The notes beneath the pieces are model-generated. The model saw only the letters and a list, made by a program, of their open reading frames with translations, made no database searches and was not told the DNA's origin. A DNA stretch of 29,929 bases from Promethearchaeota archaeon Loki_b31 (GTDB lineage Archaea; Asgardarchaeota; Lokiarchaeia; Sigyniarchaeales; SOKP01), in the NCBI GenBank assembly GCA_005222975.1, contig NJBI01000043.1, positions 1 through 29,929 of the forward strand, read 5' to 3'. The position numbers and the translations under genes are program-made. Positions 1 through 15,087 of the stretch are shown here, piece after piece; position 1 is the stretch's first letter, and the number at the start of each line of letters is the position of its first letter.

Positions 1-219
1 TAGTTATTAAATAATATAAAAAATAAATTCCTTTTATTGATTTTTGTTCCGTCCTTTTATATCAGAAAATATATTTTACTAATAAAACCATAATATTTAC
101 TGCATGTCGCAACTATCGTTTAAAAATCCGACCATATATTCAGGTCTTCGGCAGGAGTCTCTTGACACTTTCTTAATTAAATTAATGTTATCAGAATTAA
201 TATAAATTGGAAGAATAAA

Positions 220-420
220 ATGGAAGATAAAAAAGAAAAGCGGGAAAAATTAAAAAATAGAAGATTTTTAGCTATCTTTGTTTTGGTTTTATCCGCAACG
301 ATCTTACTGATTTTATGGGCGTTATTCTTTGTGTTGTCCTTCGTAAAGATTCTAGCAAAGATAAGTCCGTTCAAAAGAAAAATTAAAGAAGGGGTAAAAG
401 GCAATGAGTCATATTTATAA
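220..420 (+). CDS. Small single-pass membrane protein
   Basis: 66 aa with a basic N-terminus, one long hydrophobic stretch (FLAIFVLVLSATILLILWALFFVLSFV) and a basic C-terminus. Overlaps the next ORF start. Confidence 0.55.
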   Translation: MEDKKEKREKLKNRRFLAIFVLVLSATILLILWALFFVLSFVKILAKISPFKRKIKEGVKGNESYL

Positions 421-823
421 AATTTTAAATTTTAATAGCCATAATATTAAAATTGACGAGGAAATCTACGACCAAATAAAATGGTTTAACGAAAATGGGT
501 ATGTAACGGGAGAATCGTGTCAAGGGGGAAGGATTCGTCGAGACGAGATAGAACCATTATATATCGTATTTACACGCTTAAATAAAAACCAAAAACGCAC
601 ATTATCGAAGATATGTAAAAAATTGAAAATAAAATTCCAACCTGCATATTTATATATAGTTAGTTATCCTCACGGAAGGAGAAGCCCTTTTGGAATGGAG
701 ATTTCAATAAAGGGCGAAGGAAATCGAGTAGAGTTATTAGACAAAGTAATTGCCCAGTTGGAGCAGTTCCATTTGAAAAATAATTCTAAAAAGTTTAAAG
801 CGATAAATAAAGGTTTTTCATAA
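404..823 (+). CDS. Hypothetical protein with a TYW3-like N-terminal motif
   Basis: IDEEIYDQIKWFNENGYVTGESCQGGRI resembles the TYW3 N-terminal pattern D..I..l...iN....Y.TtsSCsGRI. The protein is much shorter than TYW3. Confidence 0.6.
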   Translation: MSHIYKILNFNSHNIKIDEEIYDQIKWFNENGYVTGESCQGGRIRRDEIEPLYIVFTRLNKNQKRTLSKICKKLKIKFQPAYLYIVSYPHGRRSPFGMEISIKGEGNRVELLDKVIAQLEQFHLKNNSKKFKAINKGFS

Positions 824-971
824 GAAATATTCAAGATAAAAATGTAAGGGTGAGAAGATTATCGAGAAATCAATAGAATTAGAAAATAACAATAACCCAA
901 ATGGAATAGTACAAAATTTTTTTCAAGAGAAAAACCATAAACGATATGAGCTTCATTTTAGCGAAGATACA

Positions 972-1400
972 ATGGCAAAAGTTAGAGCATTTTGCGAATC
1001 CTTTCTCATCAAATTAAATAAATTTATTGTAAACACAGTTGGTCATTTTTTATTTGATATTGAAGACGATATAGGATCTAAAGCTTTTGATCTGATAGGA
1101 GGGTACTACAAAGTATCGAGATTGGTTGGCGTCCAATCAAGTAATAATACTCGTGAAACGAACGAGAAATTCAACGAAATTAAAGCCGAATTTCCTCTTT
1201 TAATATCAGAGGCAATTGATTACTTATGTGACGAAATTCCATTAACACCTGAAGAGTTTATTGTAGATACTATAAACGGGGAAATAGATTTTTTATTAGA
1301 CAATGTTAAAGAAGGCTATTATAACTTTCTTGGTAAATATAAAGACTTTTCTAAAATAACTGAATCAATCGATCAAATCTATAAAAAAAACTTACTATAG
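972..1400 (+). CDS. Hypothetical acidic protein; the true start may be ATT at 858
   Basis: 142 aa ORF. The frame is open from 840, with GGTGA at 849-853 four bases before the ATT. Confidence 0.65.
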   Translation: MAKVRAFCESFLIKLNKFIVNTVGHFLFDIEDDIGSKAFDLIGGYYKVSRLVGVQSSNNTRETNEKFNEIKAEFPLLISEAIDYLCDEIPLTPEEFIVDTINGEIDFLLDNVKEGYYNFLGKYKDFSKITESIDQIYKKNLL

Positions 1401-1424
1401 AAAAATGTAAAAGGGTATGAAGCT

Positions 1425-1565
1425 ATGGACGAAAGAAAAGATTCCAAATACCTCAAATATCATGCGAAAGTAGTATTCAAAAGAATTAGATCTGATGCGG
1501 AATCGCAAGTATTAATTCAAAGCATTAGCGATTTTTTTGCCGAGAATTTCAAATTTAAGCGATAA
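1425..1565 (+). CDS. Small hypothetical protein (46 aa, not in the ORF track)
   Basis: MDERKDSKYLKYHAKVVFKRIRSDAESQVLIQSISDFFAENFKFKR*. Fills the gap between two co-oriented ORFs. Confidence 0.5.
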   Translation: MDERKDSKYLKYHAKVVFKRIRSDAESQVLIQSISDFFAENFKFKR

Positions 1566-1594
1566 AAAAGAGGAAGAATGTGAGGTATTCAGAA

Positions 1595-2044
1595 ATGAAT
1601 GGATCTAAAGAGGAAAAGAAAAATAGCAAAACAAATGGAATTAAAAAACAAGAAAAGTTGATAGATGTACCAGAGCTATGTCAATTTTGTAAATATAAAA
1701 CTAAAGTAAAAAATCCCGATAGCGATAGGAATTTTGATTATTGTGGGTTTTTAGGAGGAGTTTTTAAGCCAACTATACTATGTTTCACCCCGAAAGATAA
1801 TAAAGAGTATACTCAACTTAAAAAAGTTGTTGTAGTTTTTACGCATAAATTAGAAAAACTCAATTTTGATATAGAAGAATCGTTTTACGAAGATGTTAGA
1901 AATATCGTTGATTATATATGCAAAATTACACGGTTGATCAAAGATCTTCAAGAGCAGTTTAATCAATCGATTTATGATTTCACGCACTTTTTAGACAAAA
2001 ACAAGTTAAACCGCGATGAAAAATATTTATACCCGGTAAAATAA
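1595..2044 (+). CDS. Hypothetical protein with a Cys cluster (possible Zn binding)
   Basis: CQFCKY...YCGF...LCF. ATG at 1595 is preferred over GTG 1580 because GAGGT lies at 1582-1586. Confidence 0.65.
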   Translation: MNGSKEEKKNSKTNGIKKQEKLIDVPELCQFCKYKTKVKNPDSDRNFDYCGFLGGVFKPTILCFTPKDNKEYTQLKKVVVVFTHKLEKLNFDIEESFYEDVRNIVDYICKITRLIKDLQEQFNQSIYDFTHFLDKNKLNRDEKYLYPVK

Positions 2045-2179
2045 ATGCATAGAGAGGGGTTTTTGAAATGACAAAATTAGAAAACAAAAATAAATTAACA
2101 AATTCATTTTTTAGAAGTTCATTAATTATAAAATTTGTAAACTAATATTTATATATAATAAAACCAGAATCAATTATCC

Positions 2180-2503
2180 TCAAATTGGTGCCTTGTAGTC
2201 GAAATCCCCCAAGAGATCATTCACGGCGTCTGCAGTCCCTTTTCTAAACGCACAATAAAAATGAAAACAAATGTAATGCGCATTATCTTTTGACCATAAA
2301 AGAAAGTGATCAGGAGAAGAAGGGTTTTCAATTATTTTTTCACACAGCACACATTTTAACAGATTTCTTTTGAAATAATCCTCGGCGGGGCGGTAATTTG
2401 ACAAGTCTTGAACTAAAATCCGAATGTCCGAATTAAATAAGTCGAATATATCCAGATGGTCAATCTCTTGGATTTTCTCGCCTTTAATTAATAATTGTTT
2501 CAT
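2180..2503 (-). CDS. Small Zn-finger protein (CxxC...HxxC)
   Basis: CVLC...CFHFYC treble-clef-like ligand set. Divergent from the Rep gene. Confidence 0.65.
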   Translation of the reverse strand: MKQLLIKGEKIQEIDHLDIFDLFNSDIRILVQDLSNYRPAEDYFKRNLLKCVLCEKIIENPSSPDHFLLWSKDNAHYICFHFYCAFRKGTADAVNDLLGDFDYKAPI

Positions 2504-2724
2504 AATTTTTGTCTACTATTATTTTTGAAGGTATCGTATTTAAGTTTATTGAAACCGAAATATGGGGTTTTAAATGCTCTAATTGAACATTTATAAAGTT
2601 TCATACCATCTTGCTTAAATCTTACTTGTAATACGGTCTAAAGAAAAGTATAAAAAATCCATTAATTTTAAGTCATTTTGTATTCGCAAAGTGAGATTAC
2701 AACACGATTTATCGGTAAAAAATA

Positions 2725-2739
2725 AGATTTGTCAAATCT
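2725..2739. promoter_or_regulatory. Perfect dyad AGATTTG-T-CAAATCT, candidate operator or origin element
   Basis: 7 bp inverted repeat with a 1 nt spacer in the approximately 590 bp intergenic region upstream of Rep. Confidence 0.3.
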
Positions 2740-3096
2740 GGGATTACATACCTTCCACTTTCATTTCGTGAGGAGAAGAAATCTTCACAATTTTATGGAG
2801 TATTTTTGTACTAATGAAAAAGATTGCTATTTTTAGGGTTTAGAAGCGTAAACGAAATAAAAATCAATTTATCGGGGTATTTTTCATTTATTATTTGTTT
2901 ATCGAAATTTGATAAAGTTTTTCGAGATTAAAATTTGCCATCAATTTAGTAATACAATATTATCTTTAATGCAGTATGGTAATCCATTGAACTGTAATAC
3001 AAAATCTCCTTTTAAACGTTGTAGATGTTTATATAGAAAAATTCAGAGTAATAATAAAAGAATAAATTTGAAAAAATCCTTGAAACAAGAAATAAG

Positions 3097-4278
3097 ATGT
3101 TACTATTAGAAACTAACATAAATTCAAGCAAAATAATTCAAAAGATTAAAAATGAACAAAATATAAAATTTGAGCAGTTGGAAAATTGGATAGTTGCAGG
3201 AAGTGGGAATTATGAGAAAACGCAAAATGACGGAAGATATAGAAGCAGTTGTAACACTTACAGGGATAGTATTACCTGCGAAAGTCATAAAATAAAGGGT
3301 TTAAAAATAAGATTTAACCATTGTAATAAACTTGATTGTACGAGCTGTTTTATACATGCGTCATCTGCAAGGGCTAGAAAGATAAATAATAAGATTCTTA
3401 AACTTCAAAGAGTAGCAAGAAACAGAGGAATTAAGATAGGAAACGTTATACACCTTGTTTTAAGCCCTAAACCAGAGTTCTTTCTTTCACAGCTAAAGGA
3501 TTACGAAAGCGTAAAAAAACTTAGAAGAAAAATATTTAGAATGCTTAAAAATGCTGGTATATTTGCAGGAGTAATGTTTACCCAATTGCATTCTATAAAA
3601 TGTAAGAAATGTGGAAAACCAGATGAAACTTGTGCTTGTAAAGATAAGCAGTTAATTAGGGCGTTAAATATTCACTTTCACGTATTAGGATACGGGTATT
3701 TAATAAATAGCGAAGAGTTTAGGAAAAAAAATAAGGGATGGATGTACGTTAATTTTGGTCGTAGAAAAGACGCTTATAGCACGATATTCTACATTCTAAC
3801 CCGGGTATCAATATGGAGAAAAAATGATGGAAAATTAAATCCCGCTTATCAAATATTCGGATGGTTAAAATCAAATAAATTCGTACCGATAAAACAACGA
3901 GTTGTGTACGAAAGAGATAAATGTCCCATCTGCAAAAAAGCTAGAAAAAAAATCTTAGATGGAGTTAAATATATTAAAAATCAAGAATCGGATAAGGTTG
4001 CGTTTTCTTCAATAGATAGAATAAACGAATTGAAAGCAGAATCAAAAAATAAGCTAATAAAGGATACAATCGATCAGAAAACAAAGAAAAGAGTATTTAT
4101 TGAGGTATCAGAAAAAGACTTAGTGTTAGGAAAAGAAATATTCTACAAAAGAATCGAAGTAGAATACGAATTTAAGAACGTAGATGAATTAAGGAGAATA
4201 ACTACGATAAATAAAATGAGATATAGAAAAGATAAAAGAGAAAACGAAAATTTTAAAGAGGGAAACGGTTATGGATAA
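3097..4278 (+). CDS. HUH-superfamily rolling-circle replication initiator or IS91-like transposase with Zn-finger motifs
   Basis: N-terminal C..H...HCNKLDCTSC, motif I HLVLSP, motif II IHFHVLGYG (HUH), candidate motif III FYILTR (Tyr), plus CKKC..CAC and CPIC. Confidence 0.75.
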   Translation: MLLLETNINSSKIIQKIKNEQNIKFEQLENWIVAGSGNYEKTQNDGRYRSSCNTYRDSITCESHKIKGLKIRFNHCNKLDCTSCFIHASSARARKINNKILKLQRVARNRGIKIGNVIHLVLSPKPEFFLSQLKDYESVKKLRRKIFRMLKNAGIFAGVMFTQLHSIKCKKCGKPDETCACKDKQLIRALNIHFHVLGYGYLINSEEFRKKNKGWMYVNFGRRKDAYSTIFYILTRVSIWRKNDGKLNPAYQIFGWLKSNKFVPIKQRVVYERDKCPICKKARKKILDGVKYIKNQESDKVAFSSIDRINELKAESKNKLIKDTIDQKTKKRVFIEVSEKDLVLGKEIFYKRIEVEYEFKNVDELRRITTINKMRYRKDKRENENFKEGNGYG

Positions 4279-4487
4279 AATGTAAGACATATTAAAATAA
4301 TAATCGGCTAACTATCGTATAATATTAAAATTGAATTCGAGTATTCAAAAATAAATACATATTAAGGCGTTATAAGTGTAGAATACGACAATATAAAAAC
4401 ACTAATTTAAATACATATATAAAAATCTATATTCATACAATAAAATATAATTTATTCTTCAAATTTCAGTTAAGATACTTATATAAG

Positions 4488-5339
4488 ATGACATTTTACG
4501 AACTTTCAGTTATTACTAACACGGGATTTCCTTATTACAATTTAAAACTAAAGAGTGCTCCTAGTGGTGTGAATTTATATTTAAGATTTTTTGATTTTTC
4601 CCATAGTAATTCTGGTCCAAATATTACCTTAGATCCTGTTAGCCTATTTGAGCTCAATGCTGGATTAGTTTCAGCTTTATACGAATTTGCCCGAAGCATT
4701 GACAAAAAAATTGAAAAACTTGAATTTAAACCAAGTAAAAAAGGAGCTTTAAACAAAACAAATTATAAAGGCGATGTTTTAATCACCACTCAAACAGAAC
4801 CATACTTACTTCATAAATCTGTTAGGGAAAAGATAAAATTAATTTATAATTCCGTGATATCTCCTAAAATCCCCCTTGATTCGGCTTTAGAAATATTACA
4901 AAACGAAGAAGATAAAATATTAGACATTTTAACAGATTCAGAAGCAAGAAATCGCATAAAAAAACATAAAAAAGAGATCAATCAATTAGCAAATGATTTT
5001 TTAACTGAGATGAATAGCTATGGACTTCATGGTATTTGTATTACTTGTTTTGATCTTTCACCTATTACTGTTTTCGGAAAGAAATATTCTTTGAATGATG
5101 TAGAAGCAATTTTGAGAAAAATTGGTGTAATCCCTCAGATTTCGCCTTTAGAATGGATATATCGACAGTCTTATATTTCAGACGAACAAATATGGGTGTA
5201 TGTAATAAAATCAGGAGTAGGTCCAACTATCCATGGCCTATTTGAACCTTATTTTTATCTATTATTTGCCGATCCTCAGTCTTATTTAGGGGAATTTCCC
5301 GGAAAGCTAGCTGCTAAATTTAATCAAGTTTTAGGATAG
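4488..5339 (+). CDS. Asgard-type longin/roadblock-like domain protein
   Basis: N-terminal YELSVITNTGFPYY and helix NAGLVSALYEFARSIDKKIEKLEF fit a longin-like pattern. The C-terminal half, GLHGICITCFDLSPI, resembles a roadblock/profilin-like start. Confidence 0.55.
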   Translation: MTFYELSVITNTGFPYYNLKLKSAPSGVNLYLRFFDFSHSNSGPNITLDPVSLFELNAGLVSALYEFARSIDKKIEKLEFKPSKKGALNKTNYKGDVLITTQTEPYLLHKSVREKIKLIYNSVISPKIPLDSALEILQNEEDKILDILTDSEARNRIKKHKKEINQLANDFLTEMNSYGLHGICITCFDLSPITVFGKKYSLNDVEAILRKIGVIPQISPLEWIYRQSYISDEQIWVYVIKSGVGPTIHGLFEPYFYLLFADPQSYLGEFPGKLAAKFNQVLG

Positions 5340-5367
5340 ATTTAATTAGAAAATAAAAACAAATAAT

Positions 5368-6138
5368 TTATTTAATGGATGTTTCTGCTGCTTTTATTAC
5401 TTCATATAGTGAATCTGCCTGTAGTGAAGCTCCTCCAACTAATCCTCCATCAATATTATCTTTTTTGAATATATCCTCTGCGTTTTTTGGTTTTATAGAG
5501 CCCCCATATTGGATTCTAACTATATCTGCTGTTTTTTTATCATAGTTTTTAGTTAAAAGTTCGCGAATAAAAACATGAATCTCTTCAGCTTGCTCTGGAG
5601 TAGCTGTTTTTCCCGTACCAATCGCCCATATTGGTTCATACGCTATAACAACTTTACTTATTTCTTCGTTAGTTAAGTCTTTAAAAGTATTGTTAAATTG
5701 ATTTTCAATTATTTCTTTTGTTCTTCCAGTTTCTCTTTCTTCAAGATGTTCTCCAATACAAACAATCGTATTTAAACCCAAAGATAAAGCTTTTTTCAAT
5801 TTTTTGTTCACTAATTCGTTTGTTTCTTTAAAAATATCCCTTCTTTCGCTATGACCAAGAATTACAAATTTACACCCGAGTTCTTTTAAGAAGAATGGAG
5901 AAATCTCGCCTGTAAAAGCTCCTTTTTCTTCAAAATACATGTTCTGCGCTCCAACCATTATATTTGTGTTTTGGACACACTCAATCGTAGAACTTAAGGC
6001 TGTATAGGGTGGAACAATCACAATGTCGACAGAATTAATTTTTTTCACTAATGGAATCAATTTTTTCAGCATTTCTATAGCTTCTGAAGGGGTTCCCTTA
6101 TTCATTTTCCAATTCCCACCAATAATTGGTTTCCTCAC
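5368..6138 (-). CDS. tpiA: Triosephosphate isomerase (bacterial/eukaryotic type)
   Basis: GGNWKMN, ILGHSERR, IAYEPIWAIGTG, YGGS and GGLVGGASL. GTG start. Confidence 0.98.
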   Translation of the reverse strand: MRKPIIGGNWKMNKGTPSEAIEMLKKLIPLVKKINSVDIVIVPPYTALSSTIECVQNTNIMVGAQNMYFEEKGAFTGEISPFFLKELGCKFVILGHSERRDIFKETNELVNKKLKKALSLGLNTIVCIGEHLEERETGRTKEIIENQFNNTFKDLTNEEISKVVIAYEPIWAIGTGKTATPEQAEEIHVFIRELLTKNYDKKTADIVRIQYGGSIKPKNAEDIFKKDNIDGGLVGGASLQADSLYEVIKAAETSIK

Positions 6139-6236
6139 TTTTAATTCCCTCTTTCCTTCTTTTAAAAATATGTAGATTAAACTCGATAATGATTTTAATT
6201 TAAGTTATATTTATGTAAAAAGAGTAATAAAAAAGA

Positions 6237-6740
6237 TTATTCTTCTTTTTTTATTTTGTCTGATAACTTTGTAGCTTCTAATAGCTTTTTTACTTCATTG
6301 ACATCTGGAGACATAACTTTTGGTAATCCGAGTTGATCTCTTCTTCTTTCTATAGCAGGCTGCATGGGAATTGCTTTACCATTTTCTAAAATGGTGGATG
6401 CTTGAATAGTGTAATAATCTGGAGCTTCACCTCTTTCAACACTCATATTTTTTAAAATAGTAAAAATTTCTGTAAGTTCTACTTTTTGAGGACACACCTC
6501 ATCGCAAGTATCACAAACTGTGCATCCCCATATACTAAACGCATTTTCTCTCCCAAAAATTTTTTCTTTTAACCCAAGAAGCGCATCCAAAATTAGTCTC
6601 CTAGGGTTATAGCGTCCATTTGTTACTTGTGCCACAGGGCAAGCTCCACTACATGTAGCACACTGATAACAATAAGCTAATGTACTACCGATGTCAGATT
6701 GGATAATTTGGTTTCGAAACTCAAAATCTATGGTTGCCAT
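6237..6740 (-). CDS. hdrC: Heterodisulfide reductase subunit C-like 2x[4Fe-4S] protein
   Basis: CYQCATCSGACP and WGCTVCDTCDEVCP with a C-terminal RRDQLGLP. Start moved to ATG 6740 (MATIDF). Confidence 0.88.
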   Translation of the reverse strand: MATIDFEFRNQIIQSDIGSTLAYCYQCATCSGACPVAQVTNGRYNPRRLILDALLGLKEKIFGRENAFSIWGCTVCDTCDEVCPQKVELTEIFTILKNMSVERGEAPDYYTIQASTILENGKAIPMQPAIERRRDQLGLPKVMSPDVNEVKKLLEATKLSDKIKKEE

Positions 6741-6863
6741 AAATATCAACTTAGTTTTTATAAAACTTATATTAATATTAAATAGCATTAAATTTTAAAC
6801 TAATTCTTTTTAATTTTAAAAAAATGGATAAATAATTTAATATTAAAAGAGAGATATCTAATT

Positions 6864-7229
6864 TTAATTTTGACTTAATTTAGATATCGTTTCTTTAATA
6901 ATAGCTTCTCCATAGTTTCCAACCATTTTACCATTAATCATAACTTCCCTTCCTTGTACTTCAACTACGCCCTCCACTAATTTCCCGTTCTTGAAAAATA
7001 ATAAGGTTGGAATAGCGGTTACTCCAAATTTTTCGCCTAAAGGTCTATTTTGTTCTAAATCTACTTGCAGTAGCTTAAATAAACCCTCTCTCTCTAGTTT
7101 TTCTAAGGTTGGACTTAAAAATTTACATGGTCCACACCAATTTGTATAAATATCACAAATAACGATTCCATTATCGTAGTTATTTGGAAGCTCAATACCA
7201 TATTCTTTTAAATCTTCGATACTCGTCAT
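6864..7229 (-). CDS. trxA: Thioredoxin
   Basis: WCGPC active site and AIPTLLFFKNG. Confidence 0.92.
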   Translation of the reverse strand: MTSIEDLKEYGIELPNNYDNGIVICDIYTNWCGPCKFLSPTLEKLEREGLFKLLQVDLEQNRPLGEKFGVTAIPTLLFFKNGKLVEGVVEVQGREVMINGKMVGNYGEAIIKETISKLSQN

Positions 7230-7445
7230 TTTATTTCAGTTTCTGGTCCTTACTTAATGATCTTTTGAATAATATGATTTATATTAGTCAAAACTAATAT
7301 TTAATTACTTTTATTAGTTTCATTTATAAAACTTTAAGCTACTTAGGGAGAAAGTAGTGGATTTTTTTTCAGAACTAAAAAAAAATACGAAAATTAAACC
7401 CAATCGTATTTTAAAATATTAATAACCTAATAAAAGATGAATTTA

Positions 7446-8045
7446 CTAAATTAATGATTTCTTTTTGTCTAAAGTATTTAGTTGAGCAATTAACCAGCAA
7501 AGTTCCTCGTATGTAGATGAAGATTTAAAAATTTCTTGCGCCTTTTTCTGTATTTCGTCCTTTGAAGTTTTCTTTGAGCCTTTTAAAAGCTCTAATTGTA
7601 ATTGAGCTAAAGTTTCGCATAAATCTTTATATGATTTTTTTTTTTTTGTAAGGTCGTTTGCTGCGATCGTTATTTCTGCCTCGAGATCTGGATTTAATCC
7701 TGCTTCAATGAGCTCCATAGTCTCTTCAATTTGAATTTTTAATTCAGCTCTTCTTTCTATGGCTTTTATTTGCTTTACTCCTTTGCTTAAAAAATCTTTA
7801 ATAACGATAAAAGCACCATATTCTTTGTTTTGATCTATTATTTGAATGTTAACTGTTTTTTCCTTTTTTTCATTTAACAAGTTTGCCTTGTTTATTGTTA
7901 TATCCTTTCTCTTTTTAGATATGTTCGAACCAAACCATACATATATTGTTTTAAAATCGTCAATTAAATACACATTATCTTCTTTAAAATCGGCTTTACT
8001 TATTCTTTTTAATCCTCCCCTTACACCGACACTATACAATATCAT
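7446..8045 (-). CDS. Single-domain gelsolin with a C-terminal helical 'X' domain (1DGelX-like)
   Basis: DNVYLIDDFKTIYVWFGSN gelsolin core. The C-terminal region has a duplicated helix motif: SYKDLCETLAQLQL and TYEELCWLIAQL. Confidence 0.82.
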   Translation of the reverse strand: MILYSVGVRGGLKRISKADFKEDNVYLIDDFKTIYVWFGSNISKKRKDITINKANLLNEKKEKTVNIQIIDQNKEYGAFIVIKDFLSKGVKQIKAIERRAELKIQIEETMELIEAGLNPDLEAEITIAANDLTKKKKSYKDLCETLAQLQLELLKGSKKTSKDEIQKKAQEIFKSSSTYEELCWLIAQLNTLDKKKSLI

Positions 8046-8773: not shown

Positions 8774-8954
8774 TAATATTACCTCTAAATATTTTTAAAT
8801 TTAATCTAAGTTGTTAGATAAAATAAATGATTTAATAGATTATAACTCTTCCTTGAAAAACATACTAATCATCTTTTAAATGAATTGAAAATATTAATAT
8901 GGATGCATATTTTTCAATAATTATTCAAATTTATATACCCAAATTGAAAGAAAG

Positions 8955-10933: not shown

Positions 10934-10966
10934 TTAAAGAAAATTAAAAAAAAAAAAAATTAAATT

Positions 10967-11680
10967 TTAGGATTTTAATCCTAAATACATCCACAAAGCA
11001 AAAGTCATCATTACTCCTCGAACGAATCCGATCGCTATACCAGGGGGAACTATTGAATCTAATGCTCCACAAACCACAAATATAGTAAAACCTAATCCTA
11101 AGTAAATGAATTTTTTTCTCAAATCTCCAGTTGCTTGTTTGGCTTTTATAAAAAAACCAATACCAAGTAAAATTAATGCAGCAAGAAGAAACAACGCAAT
11201 CATTAAAAATGTAGGATGCGTTCTGATAAAACTCGCATCTATCAAATCCTCACCGGGCAAAAATCCTGGATCAGTGAAAACATTCCATGTAAAAGAAGCG
11301 TCTGTTTGAAACCATAAAAAGTACTCAAAAACTATTCCTAATACTATAAATATTCCAACAATCACCCATTTTCTCTTTGGAAACATTAACGATCCGCCAA
11401 GATACATTGCTACTACTAACACAGGAGCAACCCAGAGATAACTCAGAAGGGAATATAATTGAGTTGGTTCAATATTTGTATGATAGAAAAAAACTAAGAT
11501 AAAATCTATAAAAGGTCCCAACCACAAGAAACCAACAAAAAACATTGTCAAACCAGCCCAACCTAATAATTTCGCTCCTAACTTTCTCGCTCGATAAAAT
11601 GATAATAAACCAAAGATAGTTGAGGATAGGATTATTCCCGATGCTGTAATACCATCAAGCAATCCAAAAACAGATACCAT
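10967..11680 (-). CDS. Polytopic membrane protein (about 7 TM)
   Basis: 237 aa with about seven hydrophobic segments and no soluble domain. Confidence 0.8.
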   Translation of the reverse strand: MVSVFGLLDGITASGIILSSTIFGLLSFYRARKLGAKLLGWAGLTMFFVGFLWLGPFIDFILVFFYHTNIEPTQLYSLLSYLWVAPVLVVAMYLGGSLMFPKRKWVIVGIFIVLGIVFEYFLWFQTDASFTWNVFTDPGFLPGEDLIDASFIRTHPTFLMIALFLLAALILLGIGFFIKAKQATGDLRKKFIYLGLGFTIFVVCGALDSIVPPGIAIGFVRGVMMTFALWMYLGLKS

Positions 11681-11934: not shown

Positions 11935-14529
11935 ATGAGAAATCTAACAAAAAAAGCAGTAACAAAACTGTCAGTTTTTATTCCGCTTACTATCATATTA
12001 ATGACTATCTTTTCGTTGCCCTTAATGGGGATACCCCCATTAGGGGATCTCCTATTTCCTGGAAACGGAGTATGGAAAGTTCCAGGAGAGCTTCCAGCGG
12101 CAGAACGGTTAAATATTCAGGGTTTAAGAGGGGAAGTAACAGTTATACGGGATGAATGGGGCATACCTCATATTTATGCTTCTTATGAGGAAGATCTCTT
12201 TTTTGCTCAAGGTTATTGTCATGCTCAGGATAGACTCTTCCAAATGGATATGACACGTCGCCAAGTACGAGGAAAGTTGTCAGAAGTACTAGGAGAGGAT
12301 TTATTAACTGTAGATAAATTCATGCTTGCTATTGGAATGGAAGATTGGGCAATTAAAACCGACGAATTGTTTAGGAAAATGCATAATAATGGAACGCTTG
12401 AATTCTTTAGTTCATTTGAAAGGTATGTAGATGGAATTAATTACTACATTGGGTCGCACAAAGATGTTAAACCATTAGAATATCATTTATTGGGCTTCGA
12501 ACCTACTGAATGGAGTACTATTGATACTTTATGTTTAGTTCAAGAAATGGCTAGGCAAATGTCTTGGAATTATCATGATTTGGATAGATACACCACTCTA
12601 CTTGCCTTGAATAATATTAATCTTACTTATTATAACGAATTATATGGACTTACTTTACCGTACCAAATTCCTATTGTCCCTGACTACGGAGAATTCCCAG
12701 AAAGTCCAATGAAAGCTGGGTTTGAATTAAATCCTAGTTTTGCTTTAAAAACCGAAATTCAGAACTTCCTAGATAATGTCCAAAAAATAGATTCGGAGAA
12801 AACCTTGATGGAAAACCAAAAAGATCAAATAATTGGTTCAAACAATTGGGTTGTAAATGGTACTTTAAGCAATACCGGCGCACCAATCCTATGCAACGAT
12901 ATGCACCTTGGTTGGATGATGCCCGGAGTATGGTATGAGCAGCATTTAAAAGCTGAAGATACTGGATTTCATGTATATGGATTTATAATACCCGGAATGC
13001 CTGGTGTTGCCGTAGGTCATAACGAAAGAGTCGGTTGGGGGTTTACCAACACAGGATATGATGTTTTAGATTGGTACTATTATAACACAGACGGACCAAA
13101 TCAATACATTTACAACGGGACTTCAACACCATATACTGAAAAAAGTTATAGCATTAATGTTAAAGGTCAAGAATCTGTAGAGTTCACTGTTAGACATACT
13201 GTTCACGGACCTGTGTTAAGTGATTTACGTGATTTTGGAATGCCTCAATCTTTAGGAGATATAGTATTAGCACCAAAATGGACTGCTAACGGTTATTTCT
13301 TCAATATACTTGCAGGTAATGGTTTCGATCGAGCGGAAAATAGAGAAGATTTCGATGAAGCTTCAAAATACTGGACACTCCTCGCGCAAAATATCGTTTA
13401 TGCCGATGTCGATGGAAATATTGCGATTAGACCAACAGGAAAAGTTCCAATTCGAGACGATTCTAAAATTCCATTGGGACATCTCGGTAACGGAACTCTT
13501 CCATATAACGGCTCCAATGGGGAAGGAGAATGGATTGGGTATATACCTTTCGAGGATTTGCCTAATTCTCTAAATCCAGATCAGAAATATTTTGTTTCCG
13601 CCAATCAAATCGTTGCAGGACCAGAGTATAATAGCTATTTCTTACAGAATGAATACGCAGATGGATATAGAGCTAGAAGGATCAATGAACTTCTTATAAA
13701 TACTCCTGATGGATCTATTAGCGTTGAAATCATGAAAACCATCCAAACTGATGTGAATTCAACAGCTGCGAGAGCCTTCATTCCAGAGTTAATTGAAGTA
13801 ATATACGCTTCTTATGGTCCTATACCTCCTACGAAAATCAATAATGTTCTCACAAAATTAGAAAGTTGGCAATTTGTAATGGATAAAGAAAAAGCTGCAC
13901 CAACTATTTACCGAAAGTGGAGAGACTATTTCCAAGATTTTACTTTTAATGATGAAAAGGAAACGTATAATTTTACTGCACAGACAAGAATAGTGGTATT
14001 GGAATATTTAATGAAAGAAAACAAATCTTCCCATTGGTTTGATAATGTTTCTACACCATTGAAAATCGAGACTAGAAACGAAACAATGATGCTAGCATTA
14101 GACGCCACAATCGACTGGTTAGAAAGTTTTTATGGCTCTGACGACCCATCAACTTGGCGGTGGGGCGATCTACATCAACTTTATTTTTCCTCTCTTACGG
14201 GGTTAGATCCATTAAGTAAAGGACCTTATGAAGCTGATGGAGAAGGGTACACAATCAATCCGGCTAGAGTAAATATTGACAATGGTGTTGGAATCGCGAG
14301 AGGTGGAGCATCTGAACGCTTAATTATAGACTTTAGCAACCTAAATAACTCTTTAAGCGTTATTCCATCGGGGCAACGAGGGCTTTCAAACTCAAAACAT
14401 TATTCAGATCAACTAGAACAACTGTTCTTGCAAGGAAAATACCACTATCAATATTTTACGAATACATTATATAACTTTCCTACTAGTTCAATTGAATCTC
14501 AATTATTTTTCTTTCCAACAGGAGGTTAA
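11935..14529 (+). CDS. Penicillin acylase family Ntn-hydrolase (S45), N-terminally anchored or secreted
   Basis: RDEWGIPHIYA, AQGYCHAQDRLFQMD, GSNNWVV (N-terminal nucleophile Ser), NDMHL and PSGQRG. Hydrophobic N-terminus. Confidence 0.95.
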   Translation: MRNLTKKAVTKLSVFIPLTIILMTIFSLPLMGIPPLGDLLFPGNGVWKVPGELPAAERLNIQGLRGEVTVIRDEWGIPHIYASYEEDLFFAQGYCHAQDRLFQMDMTRRQVRGKLSEVLGEDLLTVDKFMLAIGMEDWAIKTDELFRKMHNNGTLEFFSSFERYVDGINYYIGSHKDVKPLEYHLLGFEPTEWSTIDTLCLVQEMARQMSWNYHDLDRYTTLLALNNINLTYYNELYGLTLPYQIPIVPDYGEFPESPMKAGFELNPSFALKTEIQNFLDNVQKIDSEKTLMENQKDQIIGSNNWVVNGTLSNTGAPILCNDMHLGWMMPGVWYEQHLKAEDTGFHVYGFIIPGMPGVAVGHNERVGWGFTNTGYDVLDWYYYNTDGPNQYIYNGTSTPYTEKSYSINVKGQESVEFTVRHTVHGPVLSDLRDFGMPQSLGDIVLAPKWTANGYFFNILAGNGFDRAENREDFDEASKYWTLLAQNIVYADVDGNIAIRPTGKVPIRDDSKIPLGHLGNGTLPYNGSNGEGEWIGYIPFEDLPNSLNPDQKYFVSANQIVAGPEYNSYFLQNEYADGYRARRINELLINTPDGSISVEIMKTIQTDVNSTAARAFIPELIEVIYASYGPIPPTKINNVLTKLESWQFVMDKEKAAPTIYRKWRDYFQDFTFNDEKETYNFTAQTRIVVLEYLMKENKSSHWFDNVSTPLKIETRNETMMLALDATIDWLESFYGSDDPSTWRWGDLHQLYFSSLTGLDPLSKGPYEADGEGYTINPARVNIDNGVGIARGGASERLIIDFSNLNNSLSVIPSGQRGLSNSKHYSDQLEQLFLQGKYHYQYFTNTLYNFPTSSIESQLFFFPTGG

Positions 14530-14533
14530 AAAA

Positions 14534-14944
14534 ATGGAAATAGAAAGGAGAACTTTTTTCATAAGTGTAGTCGTTGTTTTATGTCTAACTATGCTATTAA
14601 CACTAGTTCCAGTTTGGCAGTTAGTCATAATTCCTGGTATTATTGCGGGAATGCTTAATAAATCGTTAAAATATGGTGTTCTAAGCGGTTTTATTGGAGT
14701 TACACTTTCGTGGGGGATTTATGTTTTAGTTGGAGTGATTACAAGAAATGTGTACATTTTACTTGACCAGTTTGGAGCGTTAATTTTTGGAGAAGGATTT
14801 GGTTGGCTAATTTTAATACTCATAATCCTTTTAGCCACTATTTTTGGCGCTTTGGGTGGCGGAATTGGCAACGGTTTCATGACTCTAATTAACGCTTACC
14901 TCGAGAAGCATCCTTATCGAGATTCAAAAACAAAACCAGAATAG
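14534..14944 (+). CDS. Small Gly-rich membrane protein (DUF5518-like)
   Basis: About four TM segments and FGALGGGIG. ATG at 14534 follows GGAGG at 14521-14525. Confidence 0.75.
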   Translation: MEIERRTFFISVVVVLCLTMLLTLVPVWQLVIIPGIIAGMLNKSLKYGVLSGFIGVTLSWGIYVLVGVITRNVYILLDQFGALIFGEGFGWLILILIILLATIFGALGGGIGNGFMTLINAYLEKHPYRDSKTKPE

Positions 14945-15087
14945 TAACATAAAGAAAATTAAACAAAATTTCTTTTTTTTCACTCATTTTGATGTTTAAT
15001 CTATCAATTTTTCAATTATTAAAATCTAGAGAAAAAGGTCGATGCAAACCGGGATTTGAAAAAAAGAATATTAATTTAACGCGTTTC

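Follow-up and report, generated by a model that had tools for sequence, protein, structure and literature searches.

The window analysed here is contig NJBI01000043.1 at its full length (29,929 nucleotides, nt), taken from the metagenome-assembled genome (MAG) of Promethearchaeota archaeon Loki_b31 (GCA_005222975.1). Positions 105–4399 of its forward strand (4,295 bp, limits ±2 bp) are probably an integrated mobile element of an Asgard-specific, apparently undescribed family, which combines a Rep protein of the HUH type, related to SNJ1 RepA, with paired 11-nt direct motifs, and whose mobility appears to be driven by Rep through a rolling-circle process. Several parts of this reading are already established, namely the limits of the insertion, the homology of Rep, the strand and position bias of the motif, the variable cargo, the use of several target sites, and the lack of a recognisable integrase. 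A mobile element bearing an HUH Rep had been proposed in an initial annotation of this DNA, and the proposal is borne out both by the homology of Rep to an annotated rolling-circle initiator and by the presence of its relatives at other sites with other cargo. Below, G-numbers denote genomes and L-numbers denote loci; G000 is the window's own MAG, and the window is the whole of its contig C2.

Insertion limits, Rep endonuclease and 11-nt motif

According to comparison with related genomes, the block is a true insertion between the gene for leucyl-tRNA synthetase (LeuRS) and a core gene of 283 amino acids (aa) at 4488–5339, without counterpart in close relatives. These two genes are adjacent, ~140–180 bp apart, in 17 of the 19 informative same-genus loci. 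Altogether 20 such loci were compared: 17 are empty, 2 carry an unrelated insert, and in 1 the contig ends at this point. The unrelated inserts, found in G015 and G054 (1.5–1.7 kb), contain neither Rep nor the motif. An empty site upstream of the 4488 gene, which the initial annotation had advised looking for, is thus the usual state in the genus.

The closest relatives (95–96% protein identity) have empty-site DNA that aligns to window 1–104 and 4400–4517, which sets the limits of the insert at 105–4399; three empty sites (L018, L019, and L020) connect position 104 directly to 4400. Both junctions carry the dinucleotide CA, hence the 2-bp ambiguity of the limits. On the left, host intergenic DNA (15–104) shows 98% identity to the empty site of G017 (L019), with the alignment ending at 104. 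Positions 1–14 of the forward strand are also host DNA and hold the last LeuRS codons with the stop codon at 12–14, since window 1–127 is the reverse complement of G000:C1:1624–1750, just downstream of a 928-aa LeuRS open reading frame (ORF). The G000 assembly is a k=127 graph, with overlaps of exactly 127 bp at many contig ends. Truncation of the element by the contig end was considered and ruled out, the left junction lying at 104/105 and the 127-bp overlap with C1 leading into LeuRS. Because positions 1–14 already belong to the end of the LeuRS gene, the element is complete in the window.

On the right, host DNA (4400–5339, forward strand) matches the empty sites from 4400 onward and comprises the promoter region and the 283-aa gene, beyond which lies a triosephosphate isomerase gene. 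The abrupt switch to housekeeping genes noted in the initial annotation therefore coincides with a real insertion boundary in the empty-site alignment, but the 4488 gene is a conserved one (37 of 41 genomes of the genus) rather than a named housekeeping gene. Likewise, the mobile block that had been delimited at 220–4278 is indeed an insertion, only with wider limits, and the view that the window holds just part of the element has to be given up.

The gene downstream of which the constant end of the element lies, rep (3097–4278, forward strand), codes for 393 aa. Homology, invariant residues, and a structural model all point to an endonuclease of the SNJ1-RepA/IS91-like type with zinc fingers and an HUH domain, and the ORF is accordingly assigned, as a prediction from sequence, to zinc-finger HUH endonucleases homologous to SNJ1 RepA. 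Decisive for this assignment is the alignment of the Rep family profile with SNJ1 RepA (hhalign 98.6%, E 8.2e-16, 227 columns), which spans the Cys cluster/Zn finger, motif I, HUH, and Tyr, and in which H193/H195 and Y232 of Rep align with the HUH and Tyr of SNJ1 RepA. The alignment with pC194 RepA (hhalign 93%, E 3e-7) extends over the Cys cluster and motif I.

An exhaustive search of a library of 1.8 billion proteins yielded 383 cluster representatives at E<=1e-3. Close homologs number 26, and the four with a named source are MAG proteins of Promethearchaeota, Lokiarchaeota, or Odinarchaeota, the rest coming from MAG or metagenome contigs. Across 57 diverse homologs the invariant residues are C61, C76, C81, H193, H195, G200, Y232, G255, C276, and C279; among the Tyr residues only Y232 is invariant, and Y226 is not. 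Hallmarks of the HUH superfamily are a His-hydrophobic-His motif on a central beta strand and a catalytic Tyr on a helix ~30–45 residues later. Rep shows both: in the AlphaFold (AF2) model built on the family alignment (pLDDT 86.7, pTM 0.85), H193/H195 lie on strand 186–200 and Y232 on the following helix 227–234. A further hallmark is an RRM-like fold of the nuclease domain; on this point, exhaustive structural comparison (VIA) of residues ~95–260 gave HUH nucleases as 7 of the 10 best matches, with Z of just 4.0–5.3; these neighbours include SIRV1 ORF119 (Z 5.3), MVM NS1, pMV158 RepB, vientovirus Rep, Helitron transposase, and geminivirus Rep.

Other resources returned little for Rep. It has no match in Pfam, PHROGs, NCBIfam, or PADLOC, no Pfam family covers the catalytic region in the 57 diverse relatives, and the IS91 models are touched, weakly, by just 1 of these 57. 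A sequence search of the PDB gave no match, and Foldseek found nothing at E<=0.001, its PDB search giving merely ferredoxin-like ribosomal proteins. A look-up combining a sequence language model with structure suggested Rep_1, Zn_Tnp_IS91, Y2_Tnp, and REP_ORF2-G2P, which are to be taken as leads only. As for selection, dN/dS of Rep is 0.14–0.17 compared with 0.16 for the adjacent host gene, which indicates purifying selection.

Both ends of the element carry the motif ACTWTCGTATA on the forward strand. The right-end repeat (4302–4330) contains the copy ACTATCGTATA (4311–4321), located 33 nt past the rep stop codon and representing a candidate site for recognition and nicking by Rep. The left-end repeat (105–127) resembles it and contains the copy ACTATCGTTTA (112–122), 7 nt inside the junction. 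From the right-hand motif to the host junction runs a 78-nt terminal segment (4322–4399, forward strand), which is absent from the empty sites and common to L052, L090, and L096.

Nearly every locus with enough sequence has the motif downstream of rep and on its strand, at distances from the rep stop codon between 16 nt and 4.6 kb. Within 26 non-redundant loci totalling 259 kb, the strict 11-mer was counted 15 times; 14 of these copies follow rep on the rep strand, one precedes it on that strand, and the opposite strand has none. Given the background of the window's own genome (5 copies per 7 Mb, both strands), only ~0.1 downstream copies would be expected. The motif is retained across Reps that are merely 39% identical, and the homology of the window to L038/L045, with Rep 80% identical, ends at 4301, just before the motif-bearing repeat. 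The 9-mer direct repeat alone is not significant (34 genome copies), so that its weight comes from the comparative data only.

Variants at the same site and insertions elsewhere

Four cargo forms were found at the site occupied in the window, with one right junction common to all. The window itself represents the form with six small ORFs (ORF1–ORF6) followed by rep. The short form, known from four metagenomes (L090–L093, where L092 is the same contig as L052), has only an ORF6 homolog and rep, which together with the right-end motif fit in ~2.3 kb, and shows another left junction with a degenerate motif. The third form (L096 and L097) combines a 5'-truncated rep with a nuclease of the PLD family and two small ORFs; the nuclease (L096:5121–5594) matches the DrmC models of PADLOC (E 1e-8). 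The fourth form, on contig C1 of the same MAG, has the first 23 nt of the element in common with the window and then runs into a 369-aa ORF. Beyond the match to window 1–127, this contig (C1:1–1750, L001) carries three TCGTATTAC-like repeat copies, and the 369-aa ORF belongs to no Pfam or PADLOC family. The window, C1, and L096 diverge only after 105–127. In the three longer forms the left end (105–127) and the right part are therefore constant and the interior cargo is swapped, and the short form lacks this left end.

The distribution of rep is patchy: of 24 further genomes in the genus, 4 contain it, and it was not detected in any of 16 genomes from other families of the order. Conserved synteny across relatives, named in the initial annotation as the pattern that would speak against a mobile element, is the opposite of what is seen. 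Relatives of Rep are located at other genomic sites with other neighbours, and Rep is the only thing their contigs share with the window. The genes near them are often defence-like (HerA-like DUF87, SMC/AAA_15, AbiJ, HEPN, McrBC, methylases, and Hypoth_Ymh). The Rep modules of G017 and G021, for instance, have 92.7% nucleotide identity and lie at different loci. Judging from these comparisons, rep is mobile in evolutionary terms. Apart from the full gene, L008 contains an isolated second copy of the first 56 rep codons (6128–6295), 3.7 kb upstream of the full rep and near an RVT_1 reverse-transcriptase gene.

Four independent insertions (in the window, G017:C65, G015:C11, and G021:C14) were mapped against empty or alternative sites, and their left-end motifs are 7, 13, 27, and 97 nt inside the junction, respectively. 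The element of G017:C65 (15.5 kb) interrupts a DUF6786 gene, of which G005, G021, and G015 have intact copies; the motif recurs 65 nt before the right junction, and this junction coincides exactly with a motif-like site in the host gene. For the 11.06-kb element of G015:C11, clean empty sites are available in G014 and G011, and a gap of ~170 nt separates the second motif copy from the right end. The island in G021:C14 (2749–31347, 28.6 kb) has its second copy 8 nt before the right end. It was measured against G000:C44:36861–38321, which is a different 1.46-kb segment and not a clean empty site; since the window's own genome holds a different segment there, the locus appears to be a variable hot spot. 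The three large elements (G017, G015, and G021) have a common left-end module, in which the motif is followed by short iterated sequences.

As for target sites, right ends abut motif-like DNA beginning with ACT or ATT in three cases, and not clearly in G021 and G015. Elements of the L046 type and of the L054/L057 type both abut the same motif-like site of the DUF6786 gene, a gene that is present in only 26 of the 41 genomes of the genus. L054 contains an intact DUF6786 gene (1277–2338) and two fragments (8792–8878 and 10966–11430), each starting at residue 201–202, which corresponds to the motif-like site abutted by the Rep elements.

Taken across elements, the cargo includes defence-like genes (HerA-like ATPase, methylases, McrBC, and PLD nuclease) and a Ras-family GTPase. 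The latter is encoded in the 11-kb element of G015 (L043:5994–6527, Pfam Ras, E 3e-42) together with a NosD/beta-helix protein; the mobile DNA here thus includes a eukaryote-like signature gene. In the same element (L043:12918–13586) Sua5/YrdC is interrupted near its 5' end and a diverged replacement N-terminus is supplied in frame, as in attP-bearing integrative elements.

No integrase or recombinase was found by Pfam in the window element, in the 11-kb element of G015, or among the ORFs around rep in the 15.5-kb element of G017. There is also no tRNA gene in window 1–8000, which argues against integration at a tRNA/att site. The integrase, att or tRNA site, and capsid genes that the initial annotation had recommended looking for to the left of the window were thus not found for the element itself. 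Long terminal repeats are likewise absent, and a 23-nt inverted pair (197–219/4451–4473) that straddles host DNA was dismissed as a chance occurrence.

Possible mechanism, rival explanations and known systems

The constant right end as opposed to the variable left part, together with the absence of target duplication, would favour an IS91/ISCR-like process. In such a scheme, Rep would nick one strand at the motif, and replication from one motif copy to the other would release a single-stranded circle with the cargo and rep. This circle might either replicate as a plasmid or be linked by Rep to DNA at another site. The right end would join beside a sequence that begins with ACT or ATT and resembles the motif, and the left end would be set less precisely, much as in one-ended transposition of IS91/ISCR. 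A terminally redundant concatemer was rejected as the source of the two motif copies because the sequences beyond them differ. A stronger version of this scheme, in which the family is a new class of archaeal rolling-circle transposons, with one single-Tyr enzyme acting as replicase, excisionase, and integrase on the 11-nt motif and moving cassettes of 2 to ~29 kb between Asgard chromosomes without a conventional recombinase, is tentative, and we lean slightly against it.

A number of observations weigh against mobility driven by Rep. Simple cut-and-join inside the motif fails, because the distances between junction and motif vary (7–97 nt on the left and 6 to ~170 nt on the right). No hairpin was found at the motifs (z-scores near 0), and at the empty site that corresponds to the window's insertion a good motif copy is lacking, with just ACTG/ACTA at the junction. 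The DUF6786 fragments may be carried cargo and not a target, because L054 has an intact copy as well. Rep has a single conserved Tyr, and IS91 transposases are described with two; its structural Z-scores are low (5.3 at most). Unlike typical insertion sequences, the element has one rep copy in the window's own genome, and the genomes of relatives contain at most one or two Rep matches each, which are parts of one gene. Among ~60 loci no circular or episomal contig (terminal overlap) was found, and relatives of Rep or the element are absent from IMG/VR and from phage and plasmid collections, including a tblastn search of phage and plasmid records with Rep.

Some of these points also fit an integrated rolling-circle plasmid, in which Rep and the motif serve replication only (double-strand origin), integration is due to host recombination or repair or to an unrecognised recombinase, and the second motif is a by-product. 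This explanation seems unlikely, but it is a serious rival. Rep is nearest to the replication initiators SNJ1 RepA and pC194 RepA, the element is single-copy, there is no fixed offset between junction and motif, and the G015 element replaces the Sua5 N-terminus as attP-bearing integrative elements do. It leaves the paired motifs unexplained, however: a circle with one origin would give one motif copy after a single crossover, and a direct pair is seen in four independent insertions. Nor do the scanned elements contain an integrase or lie near a tRNA gene, and no free circular relative was found in the collections searched. The failure to find circular forms, in turn, would suit an immobile remnant, that is, an old insertion inherited vertically, with Rep domesticated or decaying and the variation on the left produced by ordinary recombination at a hot spot. 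Four cargo variants at one site with the same right junction, the 5'-truncated Rep in L096/L097, and Rep fragments in L008 and G008 are compatible with this. It is nevertheless improbable, as full-length Rep is under purifying selection equal in strength to that on the adjacent host gene, Reps of only 39% identity still have the motif in common, and closely related Rep modules occupy different loci in sister species.

The remaining alternative, namely that foreign DNA was wrongly joined to a host contig during assembly or binning, can practically be dismissed. The window begins at a contig end, and the MAG mixes strains, as C1 and C2 are no longer alike beyond a common stretch of 127 bp (LeuRS of C1 is 96% identical to that of L094, and the window is 99.9% identical to L094). 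On the other hand, at least seven independent assemblies (NCBI, ENA, JGI, and Logan) extend from LeuRS across the element into the genes beyond it. L094, from another NCBI MAG, follows the window through LeuRS, element, and downstream genes at 99.9% identity over 6 kb, and the variant forms (L095, L090–L093, and L096/L097) are likewise contiguous from LeuRS to the gene that follows the element. With independent contigs spanning both joins, an assembly chimera, which the initial annotation had raised as a possible objection, is refuted. Concerning the nature of the element, the same annotation had left a choice between plasmid, provirus, and rolling-circle transposon. The data are compatible both with a rolling-circle plasmid that has integrated and with a rolling-circle transposon; a provirus is unsupported, since ORF1–ORF6 include no capsid, packaging, or other virion genes according to Pfam and PHROGs, and no relatives were found in IMG/VR or phage collections.

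In comparison with known systems, the closest likeness is to SNJ1 RepA, which has relatives among the initiators of other archaeal plasmids and viruses, and with which Rep shares an N-terminal Cys cluster, motif I (H-x-x-x-S-P-P), HUH, and a single Tyr on the next helix. Identity is, however, ~18%, the window Rep is shorter (393 vs 481 aa), and it has an extra CxxC...CxC ribbon between motif I and HUH as well as a conserved C-terminal N-G-Y-G tail. The window family also differs in having an Asgard host, a chromosomal location, no virion genes, and boundaries marked by the 11-nt motif, which is not enriched in SNJ1. Homology of SNJ1 RepA to IS91 transposases has been reported (Wang et al. 2018, J Gen Virol 99:416, as cited in PMC6563490 and PMC6213432), and PMC6563490 mentions one integrated thaumarchaeal element, NitAQ6f-E2, as encoding an SNJ1-type Rep, this being the one such case on record there.

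Similarity to IS91/ISCR elements includes an HUH enzyme after a zinc-binding domain, a gene that reads toward the constant end (for the IS91 mechanism see PMC6213432), captured cargo on the other, variable side, no target duplication or inverted ends, and, in some of the insertions, a constant end that appears to adjoin a short preferred target. In contrast, the window Rep matches neither Pfam Y2_Tnp nor the NCBIfam IS91 model, its family has one conserved Tyr instead of two, copies are single per genome, sizes reach 28.6 kb, and an 11-nt direct motif near both ends replaces the distinct ori and ter ends and the GTTC/CTTG target. The control genomes contained no IS91 transposase for direct comparison. 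Plasmids of the pC194/pUB110 type (Rep_1) have an HUH core of the same type (P-H-F-H-V-L) and align at the N-terminus through pC194 RepA, but the alignment stops before HUH and Tyr, neither Rep nor its 57 relatives match Pfam Rep_1, and no episomal form of the window family was seen.

Rep-Arvir (DUF7845) of betapleolipoviruses (PMC13107129) is likewise a rolling-circle initiator from archaea whose gene is followed by a cis element, but the fold is Rep_trans-like and not HUH; this identity was rejected for the window Rep, which has no DUF7845 match at E<=1. Aloposons and other Asgard mobile elements (PMC8813620, PMC11529989, and bioRxiv 10.64898/2026.02.13.705702) are integrated in Asgard archaea too, and differ by tRNA sites, giant proteins, tyrosine recombinases, or virion genes, so that an aloposon was considered for the window element and excluded. 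These three papers describe no HUH element in Asgard archaea: the first two never mention HUH or rolling-circle replication, and the third does so once, stating that its virus has no such homolog. The Asgard clade, the 11-nt motif, and the motif-bounded islands without integrase therefore seem to be new.

Few Asgard mobile elements have been described so far, and the Rep family is a compact, sequence-defined one with a candidate 11-nt cis site. It adds an intermediate between the initiators of rolling-circle plasmids and viruses and the transposases of the IS91 type, and may provide a path by which defence-type and eukaryote-like signature genes spread among those archaea that are most closely related to eukaryotes. 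Should Rep and the motif be enough for replication or integration, a genetic tool for Asgard strains in culture could be developed from them.

Cargo ORFs, intergenic region and minor observations

All features listed in the initial annotation (six short ORFs, a long intergenic region, and the HUH gene) are present, and ORFs called with table 11 reproduce its list. ORF1 (220–420, 66 aa, one hydrophobic span), ORF2 (404–823, 139 aa), ORF3 (972–1400, 142 aa), ORF4 (1425–1565, 46 aa, a table-11 ORF), and ORF5 (1580–2044, 154 aa, with a Cys cluster) are on the forward strand. ORF6 (2180–2503, 107 aa, Cys/His-rich) is on the reverse strand, divergent from rep. None of the six has a significant match in Pfam, PHROGs, or PADLOC, and their clusters at 90% identity contain just 1–4 members each (4 for ORF1). 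Their description as orphans holds in the sense of family matches, but not for ORF6, which has 16 homologs. One of these, 81% identical, is present in L052 and L090–L093, ORF6 being the sole cargo gene retained in the short variant; another, in G008, adjoins a 669-aa gene and has no rep beside it. ORF6 has a dN/dS of 0.23 and is possibly a small zinc-binding regulator, and ORF1–ORF6 as a whole look like exchangeable cargo.

The intergenic region between ORF6 and rep (2504–3096, 593 bp) includes a conserved block at ~2700–2940, which is kept together with rep in L038, L039, L045, and L052 and probably holds promoters or regulatory sites. No Rfam family scores above threshold in this region. Window 2706–2937 is 74% identical to G000:C97:2280–2511 (L002), a stretch located upstream of the gene for a 669-aa repeat protein, beside a ribosomal-protein operon. 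In G008:C11 (L098), where HNH, HD, and AAA genes are found in the vicinity, the ORF6 homolog and the ortholog of the 669-aa gene are divergent neighbours. ORF6 and the spacer between it and rep thus have the appearance of a module moving between islands.

GC content is ~0.29 across the block and shows no contrast with the surroundings. A blastn search of the element against its own MAG returned only the matches in C1 and C97 and nothing spacer-like, CRISPR arrays not having been searched for specifically. Further along the window, GC rises to ~0.37 at 12000–15000 compared with ~0.30 elsewhere; this stretch is not an rRNA gene, because no Rfam family matches anywhere in the window. The 199-aa ORF at 7446–8045 has orthologs in L090 and L091 with a weak match to the gelsolin domain, as expected for an Asgard genome.

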